This document shows positions 1 to 62,669 of a stretch of 64,000 nt of DNA, in pieces. Source of the stretch: Candidatus Fermentithermobacillus carboniphilus (GTDB lineage: Bacteria > Bacillota > Sulfobacillia > Fermentithermobacillales > Fermentithermobacillaceae). The position numbers were made by a program, and so were the translations under genes. Location: assembly GCA_018208355.1 (NCBI GenBank), contig CP062796.1, positions 845,777 through 909,776 on the forward strand, given 5' to 3'. Under the pieces are notes generated by a model. It ran no database searches and was not told where the DNA came from. It was given only the letters and a program-made list of their open reading frames with translations. The number at the start of each line of letters is the position of its first letter. The first letter of the stretch is position 1.

Positions 1-894
1 GATCGTCTCCTTGATGGTCTGTACAACAACGGGCCTTTCCTGTTCGGGGATCTCGGGAATCAATGCATACATGCAGATCCGTTCAAACTCCGGGTCAGAA
101 CTTACAGCGTGAACACCCTTAAGCCGCATAAGTTTGCCAACCAATATCGAAGACCTGATCGAAGGCAGGTACTTATTGGCTTTCACTTCCCGGACTTTTC
201 TAACCATGTTGACCACGCGTTTTGCGTCCTCGGGCAATAGATCCGCCTTCGCCATGCATATGGCGCTCTCGGTCTCTTCGTCAAAATTGCCTAGCTCTAT
301 AGTGGCCATCCGGTCCAAGAGAGCGTCGGCGGTCTTTTGGATACCTGCATAATCTCTGGGATTACTTGTGAAAATGGCGGCGAAATCTGGGTGGACTTTT
401 AGATATCCACCATAACCCGATACGAGCGGGAGGGGCAACAAGCGTTCTTCCAAGACTGGCAAGAACACGTTATTGGTCTCAGGCCTTGATCTTGTAAATT
501 CGTCATATATGAGAGTGTAGCCGTTCTTGCAGGCCTCAAGCAGTACTCCATGAGTCCAGTAAAGGCTGGTGCTTTCCTCTGCCCTTACGACAGTGCGGAT
601 GTAGTTGTCCAGCACTTTTTTCCGTATATAGCCCTGGAGGCCCCCAACGAAATCGGAAGCAGCCAAATCGTAATCTCCGTATATGATCATGGCGGGCCGC
701 CCGATTTTCGCTGCAACGTGCATGGCCAGCGTGGTCTTTCCTACTCCGGCAGGCCCCTTGAAATGGATGGGCAAACCAACCTTCACGTAGTCCAACGCGC
801 GCGAGGTTATCTCACGGATATACGGAGTTTCCACAAAGTCTTCTCCAGGTTTGGGTAAAAAGGTGGTGAGGGATTCTTTAATATTCTCGGTCAT
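1..894 (-). CDS. gvpN: Gas vesicle AAA+ ATPase GvpN (3' end beyond window edge)
   Basis: Not in the ORF track; hand translation from ATG at 894 (RBS GAGG) gives MTENIKESLTTFLPKPGEDFVETP...HFKGPAGVGKTTLAMHVA...TLIYDEFTRSRPETNNVFLPVLEE...HPDFAAIFTSNP. Walker A/B and GvpN-typical motifs; downstream of gvpA. Confidence 0.92.
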   Translation of the reverse strand, partial: MTENIKESLTTFLPKPGEDFVETPYIREITSRALDYVKVGLPIHFKGPAGVGKTTLAMHVAAKIGRPAMIIYGDYDLAASDFVGGLQGYIRKKVLDNYIRTVVRAEESTSLYWTHGVLLEACKNGYTLIYDEFTRSRPETNNVFLPVLEERLLPLPLVSGYGGYLKVHPDFAAIFTSNPRDYAGIQKTADALLDRMATIELGNFDEETESAICMAKADLLPEDAKRVVNMVRKVREVKANKYLPSIRSSILVGKLMRLKGVHAVSSDPEFERICMYALIPEIPEQERPVVVQTIKETI

Positions 895-930
895 GTTGTT
901 ATCGACCTCGCCCCATTTCGAATGTACAAT

Positions 931-1305
931 CTAATAAACGATCTCACCCGGCTTTTGCCTGTAAGAAGGCGACAAAGCGGATTGTTGTGATTTCGATGAG
1001 TCGATATCTAGCGGATGATATATAGACGCAACCCTTAACCTGGTGAGCGCGCGATTTTTGTCGATAGTTTTGGAGAGCCTCGCTTGGGCTTTCATGAGGC
1101 GCCGTCTGAATCGCCCGGTAGCCGATTGAATTTTGTCTTTACGCTTTGTTTCTGTTTCTAAAAGCCGGAGCAAGCCGCGGTCGAGAAGCCTTTCTTGCAG
1201 AACCCATCCCTTTTCCGATAGTCCATAATCCTTCATCCTGGCAAGCATAAGGCCGCTTGCGACATGCCGCGTTTTAAGTGTTTTCACCGGTCTCGTAGAC
1301 TGCAT
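931..1305 (-). CDS. Basic hypothetical protein in gas vesicle cluster
   Basis: 124-aa ORF with RBS (GGGGGAG), co-oriented between the coiled-coil gene and gvpN. Confidence 0.65.
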   Translation of the reverse strand: MQSTRPVKTLKTRHVASGLMLARMKDYGLSEKGWVLQERLLDRGLLRLLETETKRKDKIQSATGRFRRRLMKAQARLSKTIDKNRALTRLRVASIYHPLDIDSSKSQQSALSPSYRQKPGEIVY

Positions 1306-1918
1306 GGTGATTTCTCCCCCTATCCCTTAAGAGGCGATCAAGAAGGGTCTTCTCTGTCAATCTCAGATTTTTGACATCTTCAGTCCTTAAAAGTTCGCCT
1401 TTTTTAAGAAGATTTTTAAGTTTTTGATTCAGGCCTTTTATAGCCTTATTGAACGTTCTCAACCTTTGCTCCATATCCAGAAAAGTGCCGAGGATGCGGT
1501 CTGCTTCATTTTCCATCTCGTCTCGTATCTCTTTTAGAACCGCATAAAGATTCTTTTCGTTTGCCTCCAGTACTTTGTTTCTCATTAGGGCCAGCCTGAC
1601 CCGTTCACGTGAAAGGTAATCCTTCAAGATTTCTTCCAGTCGTTTTTGTTCGATCTCCAGTTCGACCCTCTTACTTTCCAGGAGCTGCATGACGTCATCC
1701 ATCATGGCATCGAAATCTTTTTTTCGGAGAGAACAGTTTTTGGCCAAAATTTCTTTGAGCCTGGTACTAACCTCTTCCCTTTCACGGAATGCAGCGGTCA
1801 AATCGGTATTCGCGTCCCGGATAGCGCGGTATGCAGTATCGATGAGAAACCTGATACTCTCTACTTTGGACTCATATGAATCTAATAGCTCGACGATCAA
1901 CTGTTTGATATCGTGCAT
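1274..1918 (-). CDS. Coiled-coil protein in gas vesicle cluster (gvpC position)
   Basis: Probable start ATG 1918 (MHDIKQLIVELLDSYESKV...) with RBS GAGGTGG; E/K/L/R-rich helical sequence directly after gvpA. Confidence 0.7.
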   Translation of the reverse strand: MHDIKQLIVELLDSYESKVESIRFLIDTAYRAIRDANTDLTAAFREREEVSTRLKEILAKNCSLRKKDFDAMMDDVMQLLESKRVELEIEQKRLEEILKDYLSRERVRLALMRNKVLEANEKNLYAVLKEIRDEMENEADRILGTFLDMEQRLRTFNKAIKGLNQKLKNLLKKGELLRTEDVKNLRLTEKTLLDRLLRDRGRNHHAVYETGENT

Positions 1919-2007
1919 CCGGTACCACCTCAAACTGGAGATAGGAATTGGCAAGGTACGCTCTTCACACACGAGGATGCCTTGGCAATTCCCCCCACAG
2001 TGACTCA

Positions 2008-2211
2008 TCAGGCCTCGCTGGTGAGCCCTACCGCTTCGGCATATCTGAGATAGGTCTCCACCGAGGCAACCACGACTCTCGCCTCAATGGCCAAGAGTTC
2101 TAAACCAAGCACGGATACCCTTGCCCACGCATCAATCACAACGCCCTGCGTAAGAATCCTATCGATAACCTCAGCAAGCCCTGAGGGTGCGAGCGCCGTC
2201 TTCACTGCCAT
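2008..2211 (-). CDS. gvpA: Gas vesicle structural protein GvpA
   Basis: [54 protein letters not shown] matches the GvpA signature. Confidence 0.96.
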
Positions 2212-2290
2212 GTCTCCTCACCTCCTTCTAAGGTGGTATGGCGATCATGAGCCGCTTGGCCCCCACCTTTCCGATGGCAAACGGATCGGG

Positions 2291-2506
2291 TCATCCGACC
2301 GGCCGGGCATGCGACCTGTTGAATACCCCTGGTACCGGCTTCTCACAACGCGCCCCGCACTTGGGACAATACCTGTAATTCCTCCAAAACCGCCAGGCCT
2401 CTCCGCAGTTGCTGCAGGTGATAGTCAACCGCTCCCCACACTGCGTGCAGTAAGTTTCGAAGGCAGCAACGGGTCGGCCGCAACTCGGACACTTGATCGC
2501 ACCCAA
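2291..2506 (-). CDS. Double zinc-ribbon protein
   Basis: Four CxxC motifs (CPSC, CTQC, CSNC, CPKC); likely TTG start at 2506 after a G-rich RBS. Confidence 0.75.
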   Translation of the reverse strand: MGAIKCPSCGRPVAAFETYCTQCGERLTITCSNCGEAWRFWRNYRYCPKCGARCEKPVPGVFNRSHARPVG

Positions 2507-2546
2507 TGAAAGCCCCCCTAGATTTACCTCCTGCATTGGTTCGATC

Positions 2547-2577
2547 TAACTTATGTCACCCCTACTTGCCGTGTTAC
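2547..2577 (-). promoter_or_regulatory. SigK-like promoter upstream of the gvp cluster
   Basis: Minus strand GTAACA-N16-CATAAGTTA fits the SigK consensus AC(A/C)-N16-CATAnnnT(A/G). Confidence 0.6.
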
Positions 2578-2800
2578 TATTGACGCTTCTTTGGTATGCG
2601 ACGAAACAATCTCGATGGGGCACGTACAGGCGTTCCTCCCTGCGAAGCAAGCACGACGAGGCCGGGCATACGCGCATGCTCGTGAACCGGGCATTATGAA
2701 AAAAACTAAGACTGACGGTACGCCGGCAGGTGAAACTCAAGGCTTCTTCGCCTCGGCAAGCCGCGATGCCCTGTCAGACTTCACTCAACCCTCAGATAGG

Positions 2801-3211
2801 TCATTGCTCAACTAACTGTTGAGGAACACCGTCAAGTTCGTTGTCCGTGTCAGGAGTATCCTGCGGGCTATCCCTACTCGGTGCTGACTCCTCTTCTCTC
2901 TTCTCTGAGTTTGGAGGGACATATTCAACTATTTTGAGCGTCCCCACTTCCACAAAAGTCGGAGCCGAACCGCCCACTGGTTCCTGCTGTCTGGTAGACA
3001 AACCTTCTCGAGGCTTTTGCACGAATATGGTAAGCCCGTTTGCGCTCTGCCTCACCGTCGGCGCCCCTGAACATGAGATAATAAGCCAGATGGCCCTGAG
3101 CTTTGCTTTGCAGATCCGGATGAACCTCTTAAACCCTTGTCGTGAGCGTTCAAGAACTTCTTTTACCCCATGCACCGCCCAACCGTCGTCCCGAGTTCCT
3201 CTCAAGTGCAT
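2801..3211 (-). CDS. Hypothetical protein
   Basis: ATG with GGGGGAG RBS, co-oriented with neighbours; no family recognised. Confidence 0.5.
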   Translation of the reverse strand: MHLRGTRDDGWAVHGVKEVLERSRQGFKRFIRICKAKLRAIWLIISCSGAPTVRQSANGLTIFVQKPREGLSTRQQEPVGGSAPTFVEVGTLKIVEYVPPNSEKREEESAPSRDSPQDTPDTDNELDGVPQQLVEQ

Positions 3212-3281
3212 CTCCCCCAATCCAAGTCATAAATATTGTGGAGAGAACAGGAGTGAGCCTGTCTCTCCACACCTCGGGACC

Positions 3282-3827
3282 TTACGGGTCGATAGGATTG
3301 TCTACGGGGTTCGGTACATCGGGATCCAGCACTACTTTGACACTCTTGAGCTGGCAAGTTTGACACGTGAACGGACCTATCTGAATCTGGCCGAACACCG
3401 ACCCACCGCCGGGAGTAATCCCCGTTCCGGTGCAAGTCAAAGTAGGCGTTGTGCAACCTCCTGCAGTGACCTTGATCTGGTTGGTCGGCCCGAGAACTCC
3501 CTGAACAGTCCTAGTTGCCTGTAGGAGCACAACACTGTTATCGTCAAGGAGCACGGTGAAGTATATTGTTGCGTTGAACTGCACCTCGAGCGTCCCGGCA
3601 ACATCTACTATCTGCATAGTACCCGGGAAAATGGTTGCCGCACAACTTATGATCTGCTGGATGGTTCTTCCCGCAGGAGCGGCTACAGTGATAACTCCGG
3701 ATGTCGTAGCCTGGAAACTCTTCGTGACCAGTACCTCTACAGAACACAACCGGACCGCTGAACTAGGTGTTCCTGCGAACGTCTGCAGAAAGGAATCCGC
3801 GCCTGGTGTCAGGTTTACATCTCCCAT
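3282..3827 (-). CDS. Thr/Val/Gly/Cys-rich beta-type protein, possible spore coat or exosporium protein
   Basis: Strong RBS, 181 aa, no signal peptide, several Cys, SigK-like promoter upstream; function inferred. Confidence 0.6.
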   Translation of the reverse strand: MGDVNLTPGADSFLQTFAGTPSSAVRLCSVEVLVTKSFQATTSGVITVAAPAGRTIQQIISCAATIFPGTMQIVDVAGTLEVQFNATIYFTVLLDDNSVVLLQATRTVQGVLGPTNQIKVTAGGCTTPTLTCTGTGITPGGGSVFGQIQIGPFTCQTCQLKSVKVVLDPDVPNPVDNPIDP

Positions 3828-3862
3828 CGCTCTCCCTCCCTTCTTTCATCTCCGAGTCGCTA

Positions 3863-3893
3863 CATAATACGCACGAGGGGTCGACGGTGTTAC
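3863..3893 (-). promoter_or_regulatory. SigK-like promoter
   Basis: Minus strand GTAACA-N16-CGTATTATG; same GTAACAC element as the gvp promoter, one mismatch in the -10 box. Confidence 0.45.
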
Positions 3894-4079
3894 GTAAACT
3901 TGAGACACACAATCTCAGTGAAACCGGGCAAAGCCAACAAAACGCAACATATTACGTAAAGCCCGCCTCAGGGGCAAGGCAGATGTACTTCTTAACGGTG
4001 TTGCGGTCGAGGCCGATCTGTAATACATCGACATACTCACATTCGAAGCCCAGGTAGACACTCAAAAGACACTCTTCGG

Positions 4080-4700
4080 TTGCCGGATGTAGGAGTACAG
4101 AGCATCTGTGGCGTATTCATTTATCCAGAGGTGACATCATTGACTGAACAAGAACGCCTGTTTTGGGTAAGTAAGGCCATGGCTCTCGGAGCATCCCAGG
4201 CATGGATGATTGCCATCGACGATGTTGTGATGGACCCAAGGGCCCGCCTGAAATGCCGCGTTCCGCTGTGTTCGAGCTTCGGCAAGAACCTCATGTGTCC
4301 TCCGTTCCTCCTTTCATACAGGGAGAGCGAGGAAGCGATCAGGAGGTATAACTGGGGTTTGCTGGTAAAGCTAGAAGTACAGGCCATAATTGAAAGAGAC
4401 CGTGACTTAATCCACGCCGGTGCACTTGATCTCCACAAGATCATAAATCAGCTGGAAAAGGTAGCATTCGAGAGAGGGTACAGGTTTGCTGCCGGGCTAA
4501 TCGGCGGGACGTGCAGACTGTGTGACAGGTGCGCGGCAGAAACGGGAGGAACCATTTGCAGGCATCCGTTTGAAGCAAGGCCTTCGATGGAAGCAATGGG
4601 CATTGATGTAGTGGCTACACTTGAGCGGCTAGGTATCGAAGCACCAGAATTTCCCCCGAGGGACAAAGTGGAGTGGATCGGCCTGCTATTGCTCGAGTAG
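4080..4700 (+). CDS. DUF2284 family predicted metal-binding protein
   Basis: RLKCRVPLCSSFGKNLMCPP, GGTCRLCDRC, CRHPFEARPSMEAMGIDV; start uncertain. Confidence 0.85.
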   Translation: MPDVGVQSICGVFIYPEVTSLTEQERLFWVSKAMALGASQAWMIAIDDVVMDPRARLKCRVPLCSSFGKNLMCPPFLLSYRESEEAIRRYNWGLLVKLEVQAIIERDRDLIHAGALDLHKIINQLEKVAFERGYRFAAGLIGGTCRLCDRCAAETGGTICRHPFEARPSMEAMGIDVVATLERLGIEAPEFPPRDKVEWIGLLLLE

Positions 4701-4956
4701 GTCTAGGAGGGGAAACAGTGAGCGGGAATAGATACGCGAAAGAGAAAGCCTGAATAGTCACGGACATACAAATTGGCTTCCCAATTGGCATTTAGTTGAC
4801 TGGTACCTCCTACTTGGTCACCTCCAACTCGAGCTCCCTTAGTGACCCAACGCTCAGGCACTCTGTGCCACCCCAGACCCCTTTCGAATTCGGAGGGCAC
4901 TGTCGAGAAACTCATTTGATTCCAAAACGTGGTTATGTCCCTGCTCTTATCTTATA

Positions 4957-4988
4957 ACCGGGGGACGGGATGGAACCCCGCCCCCGGT
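4957..4988. terminator. Stem-loop between convergent genes
   Basis: ACCGGGGG...CCCCCGGT inverted repeat just after the permease stop. Confidence 0.6.
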
Positions 4989-5001
4989 AAGAGTCAATGT
5001 T

Positions 5002-6285
5002 TCAAGAACCCCTTGAGAGCTTCATAATCAACCAATAGCTGATCAAGGAGGCAAGCAGACCTTGGAACGCCGGAACGCCGGCGGTGAAGGCCTTAGCGAC
5101 TATTATACCAATAGCCCATGCAGCGAACGCCTGCCACCTGAATGAAACGATCATGCTAGATACATCAACGCCGTCAACCCTGTCAATGTTGCGCAGTAGG
5201 AAGAAGTGGCTGATCAGAACACCGGCGATTGGCGGTGAAAACACAGAGATGGCACTAAGTAACTGCCCAAATCTGCCGGCTAACCCCGCAAGACCGAAAG
5301 ACAGGGCGATGCTGGTTGCCAGGACGTCCCAAAATGCTCGTGGCAATTTGAGCCCGATAATGTCCCCTATGTTTGAAAAGGCTAGCGCAAAACTCCACAC
5401 GTTGTTGTCTGCTGTCGTCCACATAGCCAGAAACAGCACTATGAACGCCGGAACCAAGAGCCCCAGTCTCGCCATTACTTGTACAAAGTTCCCAGACCCT
5501 GTTATAATCGCTGAGGCAGTAGATATCCCCTCAAACACCGCAGCACCCACAACCCAGCTTACCAAGGTGGATGCAGCTACATGTACGGGCTTCTTCGCAT
5601 ACCGTCCGATGTCTGAAACCATTGAGACTCCAGTTATCCAGCATGCAATTACGGACGATATGGCCGCTCCCAAGCTTATTGGCTTTTCAGGAATCCTAGT
5701 AAGAATAACTCCCAACCCTCCGCCGGTTTTGGATAAGACAAACAGTGCAGAGAACCCCAAGATGATGAGAGACGGAACCGCGATTCTGCTAAGATATGCC
5801 AGGCCTTTGAAACCAAATATCGATGACAGAGTAATGGCGACTGCGAAAATGACTTGTGCCAAGGGTACGGGAACGCTTGGAATCAAGGCATTTAGCGCAG
5901 TACCTACAGTTCCGATTAGTGTTCCGACGATAGCCATGACAGTAATCCCTATGACACCCGATGGTATGGTAGCTCCTACACGCCCGAACACAATTCTCGA
6001 GTTCAGGTATGTAGTCAGCCCCGTTTTTTGGCCAATTAGTCCTGAGTAATACCCCAAGACTGCGAGGACCAAGTTCCCGAGGATTATAGCAACCATAGCG
6101 TTGGCAAATGTGACACCTGCCCCCAAAACAGAACCTAACAGAAATGCAGTAGGACTTATCACAAACCCCGCGAGTGTGACAACGACATCGTAGGCCGATT
6201 TCCTGTCTTCTGGTGCAACGGGCTTGAGAGCGTAATCTTCCATTGTATGAGCGATGCTAGAGTGGCTCTCAGGAGACGTTGACAT
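5002..6285 (-). CDS. NCS1 family (cytosine permease-like) transporter
   Basis: Multi-TM protein with EDYALKPV N-terminus and SDIGRYAK and WTTADNN motifs of CodB-like permeases. Confidence 0.88.
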   Translation of the reverse strand: MSTSPESHSSIAHTMEDYALKPVAPEDRKSAYDVVVTLAGFVISPTAFLLGSVLGAGVTFANAMVAIILGNLVLAVLGYYSGLIGQKTGLTTYLNSRIVFGRVGATIPSGVIGITVMAIVGTLIGTVGTALNALIPSVPVPLAQVIFAVAITLSSIFGFKGLAYLSRIAVPSLIILGFSALFVLSKTGGGLGVILTRIPEKPISLGAAISSVIACWITGVSMVSDIGRYAKKPVHVAASTLVSWVVGAAVFEGISTASAIITGSGNFVQVMARLGLLVPAFIVLFLAMWTTADNNVWSFALAFSNIGDIIGLKLPRAFWDVLATSIALSFGLAGLAGRFGQLLSAISVFSPPIAGVLISHFFLLRNIDRVDGVDVSSMIVSFRWQAFAAWAIGIIVAKAFTAGVPAFQGLLASLISYWLIMKLSRGS

Positions 6286-6388
6286 TCGGCTGCCTCCTTT
6301 CAAAAGTGTATATGACCGACGCGAGATACTGAAATCTACAAGCAGCTCTTGGGAGACTGTAGTTGCAAACTGTCACCCCCTATCGTTG

Positions 6389-8041
6389 TCAGCGTGTGAA
6401 TATAGCAGGCCCGTCTGTCGTTACCACAAAACTGTCTTCAACGCCAATCGAATGTCTCTTGTATCCCCACTGCCACTCAAAACACCCTATCATTCCAGGT
6501 TTAAGACGGCGTTGGTCATTCTTGGCGAAGCAAAGGTTGGCTGGTTCTTCCTTACCCATGACGTGGCCAACATCACGTGTGAATACGTCAGATAAGTGCT
6601 CTATATGAAGTGGGATGAGCCCCAAGGTCCTGATAAAGTCAAGTTTCTGGTCTACTGCACCACACGAGACTTTATAGACGTCGCTTCCTGTCGCATTGGC
6701 CTTTGCTGCAGGTATTCCCGTCTCGAGCATAATTTTCTCAAGTAAGCCGTAGAGGCTTTCAGCTTCCCTATTAAAGCAGGCTGTCCTGGCTACGTCCGAG
6801 ACCCCTCTCAGGAACCCGGACTCGTCGTACAGCTTGATTCCTGAATCAAATTTCAGAGAATTGCTGTGCCTTGTAACCAGATAATCCTTGTAGCAAGACG
6901 GAGATTCGCTACGGTTTCCCGAGTGCAGATTGGCAAAGTAAACCTCATACGTTAGGGGAACTCCGTGTGCGTCCATGAATTCATCGATACGGTTGATGTA
7001 AAAGCCGTAAACATCTTTCTCGTTGACTGGCCAACCTTCACGGACGCGTCGGCTTGTCTCATCCAGTGCTGCCTCGATGCCGCGGATAGACGCTAACCCC
7101 GCTATGATGTAGGCGGCAAGGTCGTTTCCGGCCCATTCTTCTCTCCAATCTCTAATAATCGCTGATGCAGGGACCGTCTCGCGTGAATCAAGGCCGAGAC
7201 CGAGGTACTCTCCAACACTCATGTCCTCTTCTTCTATACCAATCACTCCATCGGGGAGGAGTGCCCGGAACCGCGGAACGTCTACAACCCCATGACCTTG
7301 ACGCATGGTTCCTAACTTGTTTGTGAAAACAACTGTTACTTCTCTTTTGCCCGTTTGATAGAGAGCGATGATTCCACCTCGGTTCCACCTTTGTGGAATT
7401 CCTGCTATTTCTTGGACATTCAGAGGCGAAGTCACGATCACTCCGGCTAGCTTATGCTCTAATAGATACCTATCAAGTACCTCAAAGCGCCCGAAACCTG
7501 AGAGGTCGAGGTACTGTTTGAGAATAGTCTTCTTGTCGGTCTTTAGAGTATCAACTAAAGAACCGGCAATTGCAGTAAGCTGGGGACGAAGGGAGTTCAA
7601 AAGCTGTTCCACAGCATCTGTGCTTTGCTTGAACACGGTGCCAGACACCAATTGAAATTTCTCGGGCAGCCTTGTGTTAACGGTTTTTCGAATAGATTCG
7701 TAAAGAGCTACAGGTGTTTCATAATCGACGATAAGTTCCTCATCGCCACATGCAGCATGTATCGCGGCAACCGCGTCAGGGTATGGACGCTCGGGACCAG
7801 GCGCAAAGAGGAAATATGGTCTAAAATATCCAATCTTAATATCACCGGGGAGAATCATCCCCTGGAAGTATCCTCGCTCATGCATTCTGCCAAAAGCAAA
7901 CGTACCTTGTTGGGTTTTTACGATAAACGGTCCATGCATTTTCCAAGATGCTAGCTGTAGTTTGGGGAACAGGAAATCTCTGAAAACGTCTAGGCCAGTC
8001 TCCTGGCGTATCCTGAAGGGGTTGATAATTAGTTCGGCCAT
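6389..8041 (-). CDS. Divergent M24 (pita-bread fold) peptidase/amidohydrolase
   Basis: C-terminal FDSG, SDVART, GHVMG, FEW and VED supply the D,D,H,E,E metal ligands; long N-terminal region. Confidence 0.75.
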   Translation of the reverse strand: MAELIINPFRIRQETGLDVFRDFLFPKLQLASWKMHGPFIVKTQQGTFAFGRMHERGYFQGMILPGDIKIGYFRPYFLFAPGPERPYPDAVAAIHAACGDEELIVDYETPVALYESIRKTVNTRLPEKFQLVSGTVFKQSTDAVEQLLNSLRPQLTAIAGSLVDTLKTDKKTILKQYLDLSGFGRFEVLDRYLLEHKLAGVIVTSPLNVQEIAGIPQRWNRGGIIALYQTGKREVTVVFTNKLGTMRQGHGVVDVPRFRALLPDGVIGIEEEDMSVGEYLGLGLDSRETVPASAIIRDWREEWAGNDLAAYIIAGLASIRGIEAALDETSRRVREGWPVNEKDVYGFYINRIDEFMDAHGVPLTYEVYFANLHSGNRSESPSCYKDYLVTRHSNSLKFDSGIKLYDESGFLRGVSDVARTACFNREAESLYGLLEKIMLETGIPAAKANATGSDVYKVSCGAVDQKLDFIRTLGLIPLHIEHLSDVFTRDVGHVMGKEEPANLCFAKNDQRRLKPGMIGCFEWQWGYKRHSIGVEDSFVVTTDGPAIFTR

Positions 8042-62332: not shown

Positions 62333-62360
62333 ACCCTTCTGACGGCGGTTTCATATAGTA
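62333..62360 (+). promoter_or_regulatory. SigK-like promoter
   Basis: ACC-N16-CATATAGTA, 31 bp before the ferritin-like gene. Confidence 0.5.
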
Positions 62361-62390: not shown

Positions 62391-62669
62391 TTGTCCGAGG
62401 AACTAGCGATGCGTTATGGGGACCAGGACCAAGCAACCGTGCTTGAAATGCTTCGGGAAGACCTCATAGGAGAACTTCAAGCCATAAATCAGTATGAACG
62501 ACATGCGAGGACGACCTCTTACGCACCCGCCCGACAGCTTTTCCAGGAAATTGCCGATGATGAAAAACACCACGTAGCCGAGCTGCTAAGGATGATAGCA
62601 CAGCTTGATAGAGTACAGGCCGAAGAGCTGAGAAAGGCTTTCATGTACAGTCTAGGAAAGCGTGATTAG
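62391..62669 (+). CDS. Small half-ferritin/rubrerythrin-like protein
   Basis: DLIGELQAINQYERH...IADDEKHHVAEL di-iron motifs; RBS GAGGGG. Confidence 0.85.
   Translation: MSEELAMRYGDQDQATVLEMLREDLIGELQAINQYERHARTTSYAPARQLFQEIADDEKHHVAELLRMIAQLDRVQAEELRKAFMYSLGKRD

Follow-up and report, generated by a model that had tools for sequence, protein, structure and literature searches.

The first 3.9 kb of a 64,000-nucleotide stretch of the Candidatus Fermentithermobacillus carboniphilus genome hold the promoter-proximal end of a gas-vesicle (gvp) operon of 14 minus-strand genes, and this operon is preceded by a sequence that fits the consensus of SigK, the late mother-cell sigma factor of endospore formers. 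The whole stretch (G000:C1:845777-909776) is called the window here; the genome is a single contig of 2.32 Mb with 54% GC, and is 94.5% complete. Judging by sequence, the best reading is that a mother-cell promoter of SigK type lies before the operon, and we consider this reasonably probable. The host is a spore former that encodes SigK, and the same motif recurs before gvpA, the gene for the major structural protein, in other spore formers. An original prediction, made from the letters of the window, had proposed that the entire 3.9 kb is wired to late sporulation. What it had observed is confirmed in part, and its interpretation is partly supported.

The promoter candidate before the operon

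The promoter candidate, which we call site 1, reads in full GTAACA-CGGCAAGTAGGGGTGA-CATAAGTTA, that is, GTAACA-N16-CATAAGTTA, and stands exactly as predicted before the first gene of the cluster (Table 1). Its -10 element, CATAAGTTA at 2555..2547, has the form CATAnnnTA, and the AC of its -35 element lies at the 16- to 17-nucleotide (nt) distance of the consensus, with ACACGGCAAGTAGGGGTGACATAAGTTA fitting AC-N17-CATAnnnTA. The -35 context, TAACAC, agrees with the [T/G][C/A]AC[C/A] of 18 sites found upstream of gvpA elsewhere. The site is non-coding (coding fraction 0), is in sense orientation and lies at leader distance from the gene that follows. This gene encodes a double zinc ribbon. From the end of the -10 element it is 11 nt to an ATG (2536) of its open reading frame (ORF), and 41 nt to a TTG (2506) in the same frame, with a Shine-Dalgarno (SD)-like GGGGGG 6 nt upstream of the TTG. 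We take the TTG to be the more plausible start of the gene, because 11 nt would allow no leader.

The words of the motif are by themselves at chance level in both window and genome. The strict form AC-N17-CATAnnnTA occurs twice in the window where 0.71 occurrences are expected, a count reached by 18 of 100 shuffles; the looser AC-N16-17-CATAnnnTA has 45 matches on the two strands of the genome, against a rough base-composition estimate of about 55; and GTAACAC is present five times in the window (4.38 expected). These counts weigh against a functional site. So does the location of site 1, which is 336 nt from gvpA and precedes an extra zinc-ribbon gene that no other locus has, whereas relatives have the motif immediately upstream of gvpA, 30-116 nt away. 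It is therefore possible, if somewhat unlikely, that site 1 is a chance match, and that a recently acquired foreign gvp operon is transcribed from a different promoter of vegetative or stress-responsive type, perhaps closer to gvpA, uncoupled from sporulation. What speaks against such an arrangement is that a sigma-70 scan gave no sigma-70-like site before either the zinc-ribbon gene or gvpA, and the 79-nt gap has no obvious one. Furthermore, at the genome's non-coding rate a strict match is expected only about 0.004-0.005 times per 250-nt upstream stretch, and the same motif precedes gvpA in spore formers of at least nine families. The weight of site 1 comes from its position and from this recurrence, and not from the words alone.

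The sole other strict AC-N17-CATAnnnTA in the window is at 62333-62360 (plus strand), 31 nt before an ORF of 92 amino acids (aa) for a rubrerythrin/COQ7-like (ferritin-like) protein (62391-62666, plus strand), which may be another mother-cell gene.

Recurrence of the motif before gvpA in other spore formers

The interval scored was the sense strand from -130 to -25 relative to the gvpA start. Among 21 loci from 20 genomes of the organism's own class, CATAnnnT occurs at 10 (shuffle mean 1.4) and the two-block motif AC-N16-17-CATAnnnT at six (shuffle mean 0.16); neither number was reached in 2000 shuffles, and the antisense strand has no match to either. A phylum sample, for which gvpA was found in 13 of 400 further genomes, gave 18 loci, with 13 matches to CATAnnnT and nine to the two-block motif (dinucleotide-shuffle means 2.8 and 0.22, reached in 0 of 1000 shuffles; one and no antisense matches, respectively). 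The third set came from the class of a Bacillota metagenome-assembled genome (MAG; locus L096), where 33 of 162 genomes have gvpA. Loci were obtained for 30 of 38 places and one, with 75 nt upstream, was dropped; the 29 that were left have 19 and nine matches (means 4.95 and 0.5, reached in 0 of 500 shuffles; eight and one antisense). When the three sets are pooled, CATAnnnT is present at 42 of the 68 loci and the two-block motif at 24.

As controls we took the 80 named loci nearest in GvpA sequence, mostly of cyanobacteria, Bacteroidota and Proteobacteria; the species with a published gas-vacuole phenotype are not among them. In the 78 with enough upstream DNA, CATAnnnT occurs eight times and the two-block motif once, and that one is the single Bacillota MAG among them. 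The base rate in the genome under study is likewise low, with the two-block motif in the same interval of 17 out of 1975 genes. For the own class and the phylum sample, the two-block matches fall in nine of 24 gvpA-bearing families. Positions that were not part of the search are also kept. Among 18 sites compared, 17 have T or G three bases before AC (-21), and AC is followed by C or A. The word GTAAC is found at four of the 68 loci, one of which (L190) reads GTAACAC-N15-CATAAATTA. With spore formers of at least nine families carrying the motif before gvpA, such wiring would be a rule-like state for hosts of this kind.

There are limits to what this recurrence says of site 1. The two-block motif is missing from 44 of the 68 loci, and related genomes are not independent, since kin share promoters by descent; in the own class, five of the 10 CATAnnnT loci come from one family. 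More directly, gvpA was found in none of 35 other genomes of the same order, so site 1 has no orthologue for comparison. Because the order lacks gvpA and the front of the cluster is syntenic with clusters of Chloroflexia and Bacteroidota, the 24 matching loci are analogues, and not orthologues, of site 1. The expectation that the motif would be conserved before gvpA thus holds against the controls, but for analogous clusters only.

Nearly all gvpA carriers are spoIVA-positive (18 of 20, the two misses being 82% and 61% complete, 13 of 13, and 30 of 32, plus G597). We do not use this association as support; although all 14 of 14 carriers counted in the phylum sample have spoIVA, it is too weak given an overall spoIVA base rate of 324 in 401 genomes.

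Three side observations concern these loci. In one family (f42; L021, L024, L027, L028 and L030), a conserved 5'-leader hairpin, TGGAGG-loop-CCTCCA, directly follows CATAnnnT, and its stem sequences vary without loss of pairing. The hairpin may act on gvpA translation or stabilise the mRNA. The leader of a third gvpA-like gene, at L169 (G213), has a CATATTAT site and then, ahead of the start codon, at least seven copies of (GGACAA)n. In the L096 MAG, two convergent ORFs with a common C-terminal domain (3738-5196, minus strand) neighbour the gvp genes; one of the two has about 20 GGLSITPP-like repeats, and both may encode spore-surface or fibre proteins.

Sporulation genes and the sigma factor

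The genome is that of a spore former encoding SigK and the sporulation machinery. Both sigK and spo0A, which the proposed wiring presupposes, are present: SigK scores 299 bits in NF004471 (cut-off 252) and 294-295 bits in TIGR02846 (cut-off 298.65), while Spo0A (406 bits), SpoIVA (710) and SpoIIIAA (311) all exceed their cut-offs, and sigE and sigG are adjacent. Upstream of sigK itself (genome 2220100-2220230) is GCACA-N15-AATAGTATG, an AC-type site with AATA replacing CATA, which fits self-reinforcing transcription of sigK; on the opposite strand, AC-N16-CATACTAT precedes a 306-aa ORF.

Across the genome, AC-N16-17-CATAnnnT has 281 matches, 66 of them outside crude gene calls. An SD-preceded ORF of at least 60 aa follows within 160 nt in 29 of the 66, and 28 of these were scanned, the zinc-ribbon ORF alone being left out. 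The ORFs after the motif include CotJA, two LysM proteins, a GH18 hydrolase, YmaF, SpoIID, BofA and an M23 peptidase, together with unrelated genes (H+-PPase, L28, FabA and others) and nine without a family. When the sites are aligned on CATA, most have CAC or AAC 17 nt upstream. The sites of BofA, M23 and SpoIIIAA fit a SigE-type two-block pattern (kmATAww-N13-15-mATAnnnT), the CATAT word serving as the -35 element, and those of CotJA, LysM, GH18 and YmaF do not. Site 1 has a K-type match only, with no fit to the SigE-type pattern, and therefore groups with the coat-like set.

A second alternative accepts site 1 as a promoter and has it read by SigE, or by SigE and SigK together, in which case gas vesicles would begin to form soon after asymmetric division and not late. 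We regard this as unlikely, and as less likely than a chance match. The CATA -10 element is common to SigE and SigK. At N13-15, SpoIIIAA, BofA and M23 have a kmATA -35 block, which site 1 lacks. In keeping with the SigK consensus, site 1 has AAC-AC at -35 and a final TA at -10, and the sites before gvpA elsewhere have in common [T/G][C/A]AC[C/A] at -35. Two gvpA loci (L015 and L021) carry GTCAT at -35, as do spoIVA and spoIIIAA of the host. Matches to the AC-type pattern are also found here before SpoIID, BofA and M23, all three of them early genes in B. subtilis, and this makes the division between E and K types soft.

Other observations likewise weigh against a confident assignment to SigK. 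The DpaA (TIGR02853) and YabG (TIGR02855) families, which are classic SigK targets, were not found in the genome, so there is no in-genome SigK standard. Some clostridia make dipicolinate by another way, and this may be so here. The YkuD and DUF3048 genes have E-type matches, and YkuD is SigK-dependent in B. subtilis. With crude gene calls, the preference of the motif for one orientation in intergenic DNA comes to no more than 1.5-fold. Finally, the SigK and SigE consensus sequences are those of B. subtilis, and the host is a distant anaerobe. SigK and SigE are thus not separable by sequence alone: of the predicted late control, the SigK-consensus site before the operon stands and the term 'late' is weakened.

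Predicted transcription and RNA libraries

If site 1 is a mother-cell promoter, RNA polymerase with one of the sporulation sigma factors would bind TAACAC-N15-CATAAGTTA and begin transcription near 2540, about 7 nt past CATAAGTTA. The operon would be transcribed in the mother cell of the sporangium, and gas vesicles would assemble beside the developing spore, as microscopy showed in other anaerobic spore formers. The acting sigma factor, start site, timing and cell type in this scheme are what we infer from the motif and its host.

Two metatranscriptome runs of one study hold RNA from this region, in contigs (Logan) that show neither starts, strand nor level. Contigs at 1971-2219 and 1979-2260 lie over gvpA, and contigs at 3284-3844 and 3257-3840 over a 181-aa gene upstream of the operon; small pieces of three other ORFs of an 18-kb stretch are also present. 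In these two runs, no RNA contig covers the zinc-ribbon gene, site 1 or most other gvp genes, and such missing cover proves nothing; DNA runs of the same study cover an entire 12.7 kb in long contigs. The gvpA contigs end about 280 nt short of the predicted start, for which processing, a second promoter or low depth are possible reasons, and no promoter-like words were seen just upstream of 2260. The contigs over the 181-aa gene end 20-24 nt downstream of the -10 element of its own promoter candidate (site 2), and are compatible with a start just after it. We dropped co-expression of gvpA and the 181-aa gene as deduced from equal contig depths (31.3 and 32.1 in one run, 10.4 and 10.1 in the other), because contig depth cannot rank genes.

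Gene content and origin of the cluster

The gvpA and gvpN genes named in the original prediction are real, each scoring above its family cut-off (Table 1). In the window the operon runs from the zinc-ribbon gene through gvpA, a coiled-coil gene and a 124-aa ORF to gvpN. It goes on outside the window with hsp20, a CDC48-type double AAA ATPase, gvpF/L, gvpG, a gvpJ-like gene, gvpK, a further gvpF/L, a second small gvpA/J-family gene and gvpO. Just beyond the window start, GvpL_GvpF (twice), GvpG, Gas_vesicle (twice), GvpK and GvpO all exceed their Pfam cut-offs, and the assembly set of GvpN with GvpF/L, G, J, K and O is present beside GvpA. Upstream of the operon come a 745-nt stretch with one doubtful ORF of 139 aa, then the 181-aa gene and then a divergent DUF2284 gene. 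The coiled-coil ORF is open back to 2008 (244 aa), and ATG 1918 is its probable start. No Pfam or NCBIfam family matched the 124-aa ORF, the 139-aa ORF or the 181-aa protein, and no Rfam family was found in 1-4300. The hairpins after and before gvpA are no more stable than those of shuffled sequences.

Table 1. Features at the start of the window, in order of position
Feature	Position	Strand	Basis
gvpN (AAA+ ATPase)	1..894, on to -44 beyond window start	minus	312 aa in genome; TIGR02640 301 bits (cut-off 266.8); Pfam AAA_5
124-aa ORF, conserved gvp-cluster neighbour	931..1305	minus	tblastn homologue in locus L065
Coiled-coil protein, 214 aa from ATG 1918	1274..1918	minus	homologues align from that ATG
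Imperfect hairpin, 13 bp, directly 3' of gvpA stop codon	1945..2000	minus	read from sequence; fold -27.4 kcal/mol, z -0.5
gvpA, major gas-vesicle structural protein, 67 aa	2008..2211	minus	Pfam Gas_vesicle PF00741 2e-13; NCBIfam GvpA NF006874 111 bits (cut-off 100)
Double zinc-ribbon ORF, operon's first gene	2291..2536 (81 aa); likely start TTG 2506 (71 aa)	minus	Pfam DZR 2.1e-9, Zn_Ribbon_1 2.3e-8
Site 1, mother-cell (SigK-type) promoter candidate, GTAACAC-N15-CATAAGTTA	2577..2547	minus	exact pattern match
139-aa ORF, doubtful status	2801..3220	minus	coding score 5.1, lowest kept; two homologues only, 98% and 80%
181-aa all-beta protein, rare family, candidate spore-surface protein	3282..3827	minus	AF2 pLDDT 82.9, all strands
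Site 2, promoter candidate of 181-aa gene, GTAACAC-N15-CGTATTATG	3864..3893	minus	also readable as GTAACA-N18-TATTAT

The original prediction included in the module genes never linked to gas vesicles. The coiled-coil and 124-aa genes are not new in this sense; they are conserved gvp neighbours, because homologues of them follow gvpA in Chloroflexota, Bacteroidota and other loci. A coiled-coil homologue (24-31% identity) is the next gene after gvpA in 16 loci, which belong to Chloroflexota, Bacteroidota, Pirellulales, Desulfobacula and Chlorobium, and in none of 39 loci of the organism's own phylum; in the Atlas, clusters score 0.95-0.96 with the coiled-coil protein. In a Chloroflexia MAG (L065), gvpA is followed by a coiled-coil homologue, an extra ORF for a coiled-coil protein, a homologue of the 124-aa ORF and gvpN, and the ORF between the coiled-coil homologue and gvpN matches our 124-aa ORF with 41% identity over 54 aa (tblastn).

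The front of the cluster (gvpA, coiled-coil, 124-aa gene and gvpN) is thus syntenic with clusters of Chloroflexia and Bacteroidota and unlike those of the phylum. GvpA is 76% identical to Chloroflexia and Dehalococcoidales proteins (L065 and L066), compared with 58-71% within the phylum. The front looks acquired, and of Chloroflexota/Bacteroidota type. The upstream DNA has no similarity to the Chloroflexota loci, and the GC content, about 0.50 here and 0.54 genome-wide, does not mark a sharp island. The zinc-ribbon gene has no homologue beside gvpA in 119 other loci. A second zinc-ribbon element is found in the cluster, as a CPQC...CPWC tail at the C-terminus of the GvpJ-like Gas_vesicle-domain protein (genome 841745-842146), and both elements are unusual for gvp clusters among the loci compared.

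DNA contigs of a related strain (runs X4 and X5) match only genome 837740-850491 (window -8036..4715), with unlike sequence beyond both ends. In that strain the block from an ABC1 kinase gene to the DUF2284 gene lies in other flanks and is split by an insertion before gvpO (L145 positions 740, 2897-2900 and 13491 correspond to window -8036, -5879 and 4715). Within the doubtful 139-aa ORF, at window 3174, the strain also has 6 additional nt, which keep the frame. The match fits a movable block of 12.7 kb that includes the 181-aa and DUF2284 genes. A cluster type foreign to the phylum, its absence from the 35 other genomes of the order and its presence in other flanks in the related strain are further points in favour of site 1 as a chance match.

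The 181-aa gene

Site 2, before the 181-aa gene, had been predicted to have the same GTAACAC element and spacer as site 1. The element is there (3893..3887), but the -10 at the spacing of site 1 is CGTATTATG, which lacks CATA and does not fit CATAnnnT. The 181-aa gene is a transcription unit of its own, apart from the gvp operon. Because it also has a close homologue (306 bits) in G367, a genome 97% complete and spoIVA-positive in which gvpA was not found with the query used, the 3.9 kb are two neighbouring units, and the single module that had been proposed does not hold.

By itself the gene appears to belong to the sporulation class, and not to the gas-vesicle genes. Upstream of its relatives are GCAC-N16-CATATTATGT (L147) and GGAAC-N17-CATATTATGT (L148), and a distant paralogue in G184 has AC-N17-CATACTGT; a canonical CATATTAT promoter is present in relatives of the gene. 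Both in the window and in G367/L146, CGTA replaces CATA at -10. The promoter here would then be of the same class as in the relatives, and degenerate. In G184 (L151; C50:44821-48279, minus strand), the 181-aa homologue is the last of three tandem same-strand ORFs of 206, 179 and 195 aa, with AC-N17-CATACTGT preceding the last, and the three may be paralogues.

A simpler possibility is that the 181-aa gene has an ordinary housekeeping promoter, GTAACA-N18-TATTAT, and is a mere neighbour, unrelated to spores or gas vesicles. This is doubtful, though the reading scores 9/12 in the sigma-70 scan, and both the -10 without CATA here and in G367/L146 and the presence of the gene in G367, where gvpA was not found, are in keeping with it. 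Sigma-70-like sites are fewer in the region than in shuffles (2 against 3.5), however, and three of the five distinct upstream regions of the family have the form AC-N16/17-CATAnnnT (L147, L148 and G184). In addition, spoIVA is present in each of the three genomes that have a member of the family, and the look-alikes of the protein in the Atlas are CotE and SipL (TM 0.55-0.59, features 0.93) and CryBP1-type Bacillota clusters, which are leads only.

The protein has 11 homologues among 5.8 billion proteins. Foldseek against the PDB gave nothing at E<=0.001, and VIA-align gave middling scores to the HSP20/CS sandwich (Z 6.4, 5.6 and 5.2). A metagenome scan for the family yielded three short contigs only, with no gvp genes on them. 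The product is probably a spore-associated beta-sandwich protein and not part of a gas vesicle.

A broader scenario can be offered tentatively, and we would not give it an even chance. The gvp genes would be widespread, as yet overlooked, in the late mother-cell (SigK) regulon across many endospore-forming families of Bacillota; here a cluster of foreign type would have been captured and rewired through a new zinc-ribbon first gene with GTAACAC-N15-CATAAGTTA, beside a novel spore-surface gene with a sister promoter, both travelling on the 12.7-kb block.

Comparison with known systems

Gas vacuoles beside the spores of anaerobes have appeared in species descriptions since the 1970s. In the literature within our scope, which did not extend to subscription papers, we found no work in which a sporulation sigma factor is linked to gvp genes in endospore formers, only Streptomyces work and notes on phenotype. 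If the SigK-type promoter before gvpA is real and conserved, gas vesicles would be a developmental product of the mother cell. An implication is that they would serve spore dispersal or release rather than vegetative buoyancy, and a recurrent sporulation-type promoter would explain why gas vacuoles lie beside spores. The operon described here may also be an organelle cluster that was gained horizontally and then plugged into the developmental programme of its host.

Gas vacuoles form in sporulating cells of Desulfofarcimen acetoxidans (PMC3035247), and have been reported for Desulfosporosinus cupriresistens, Desulfallas sapomandens and 'Desulforudis audaxviator' (PMC12739157) and for Sporohalobacter lortetii and Orenia sivashensis (PMC4187190). 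Candidatus Fermentithermobacillus carboniphilus resembles these organisms, as far as the available text of the reports goes, in being anaerobic, in forming endospores and in having a complete gvp cluster, and the timing predicted for it matches what microscopy shows. The same text gives phenotypes and gene lists, with no promoter or sigma factor. The cluster type here differs from that of the phylum, and gas vesicles are predicted here from the genes.

Site 1 can also be compared with the SigK promoters of B. subtilis, whose late mother-cell regulon is described by Eichenberger et al. (2004; PMC517825, available text). It shares with the general consensus of these promoters the AC of the -35 element, the 16- to 17-nt gap, CATAnnnTA, and a short leader to an SD-preceded start, in a host with SigK. 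It differs in that the host, an anaerobe, is only distantly related and gave no DpaA or YabG match, and in that dependence on the sigma factor is proposed from the motif.

Regulated gvp clusters are known from haloarchaea, where control involves GvpE and GvpD, and from Priestia megaterium. In Serratia, gvp expression is under quorum-sensing and oxygen control (as cited within the available text of PMC12739157). The operon here has in common with these clusters the core genes gvpA, N, F/L, G, J, K and O and accessory genes of Hsp20 and AAA types. It has no cluster-encoded activator that we recognise, and its control would be exerted through a developmental sigma factor of the host.

Gene order is shared with the Chloroflexota and Bacteroidota clusters (L065, L066, L128 and others), which likewise run from gvpA through coiled-coil and 124-aa homologues to gvpN, and GvpA is 76% identical to the proteins of L065 and L066. 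Their hosts, in contrast, are not endospore formers, their clusters have no zinc-ribbon gene and their upstream DNA is unrelated, and neither L065 nor L066 is among the eight control loci with CATAnnnT.

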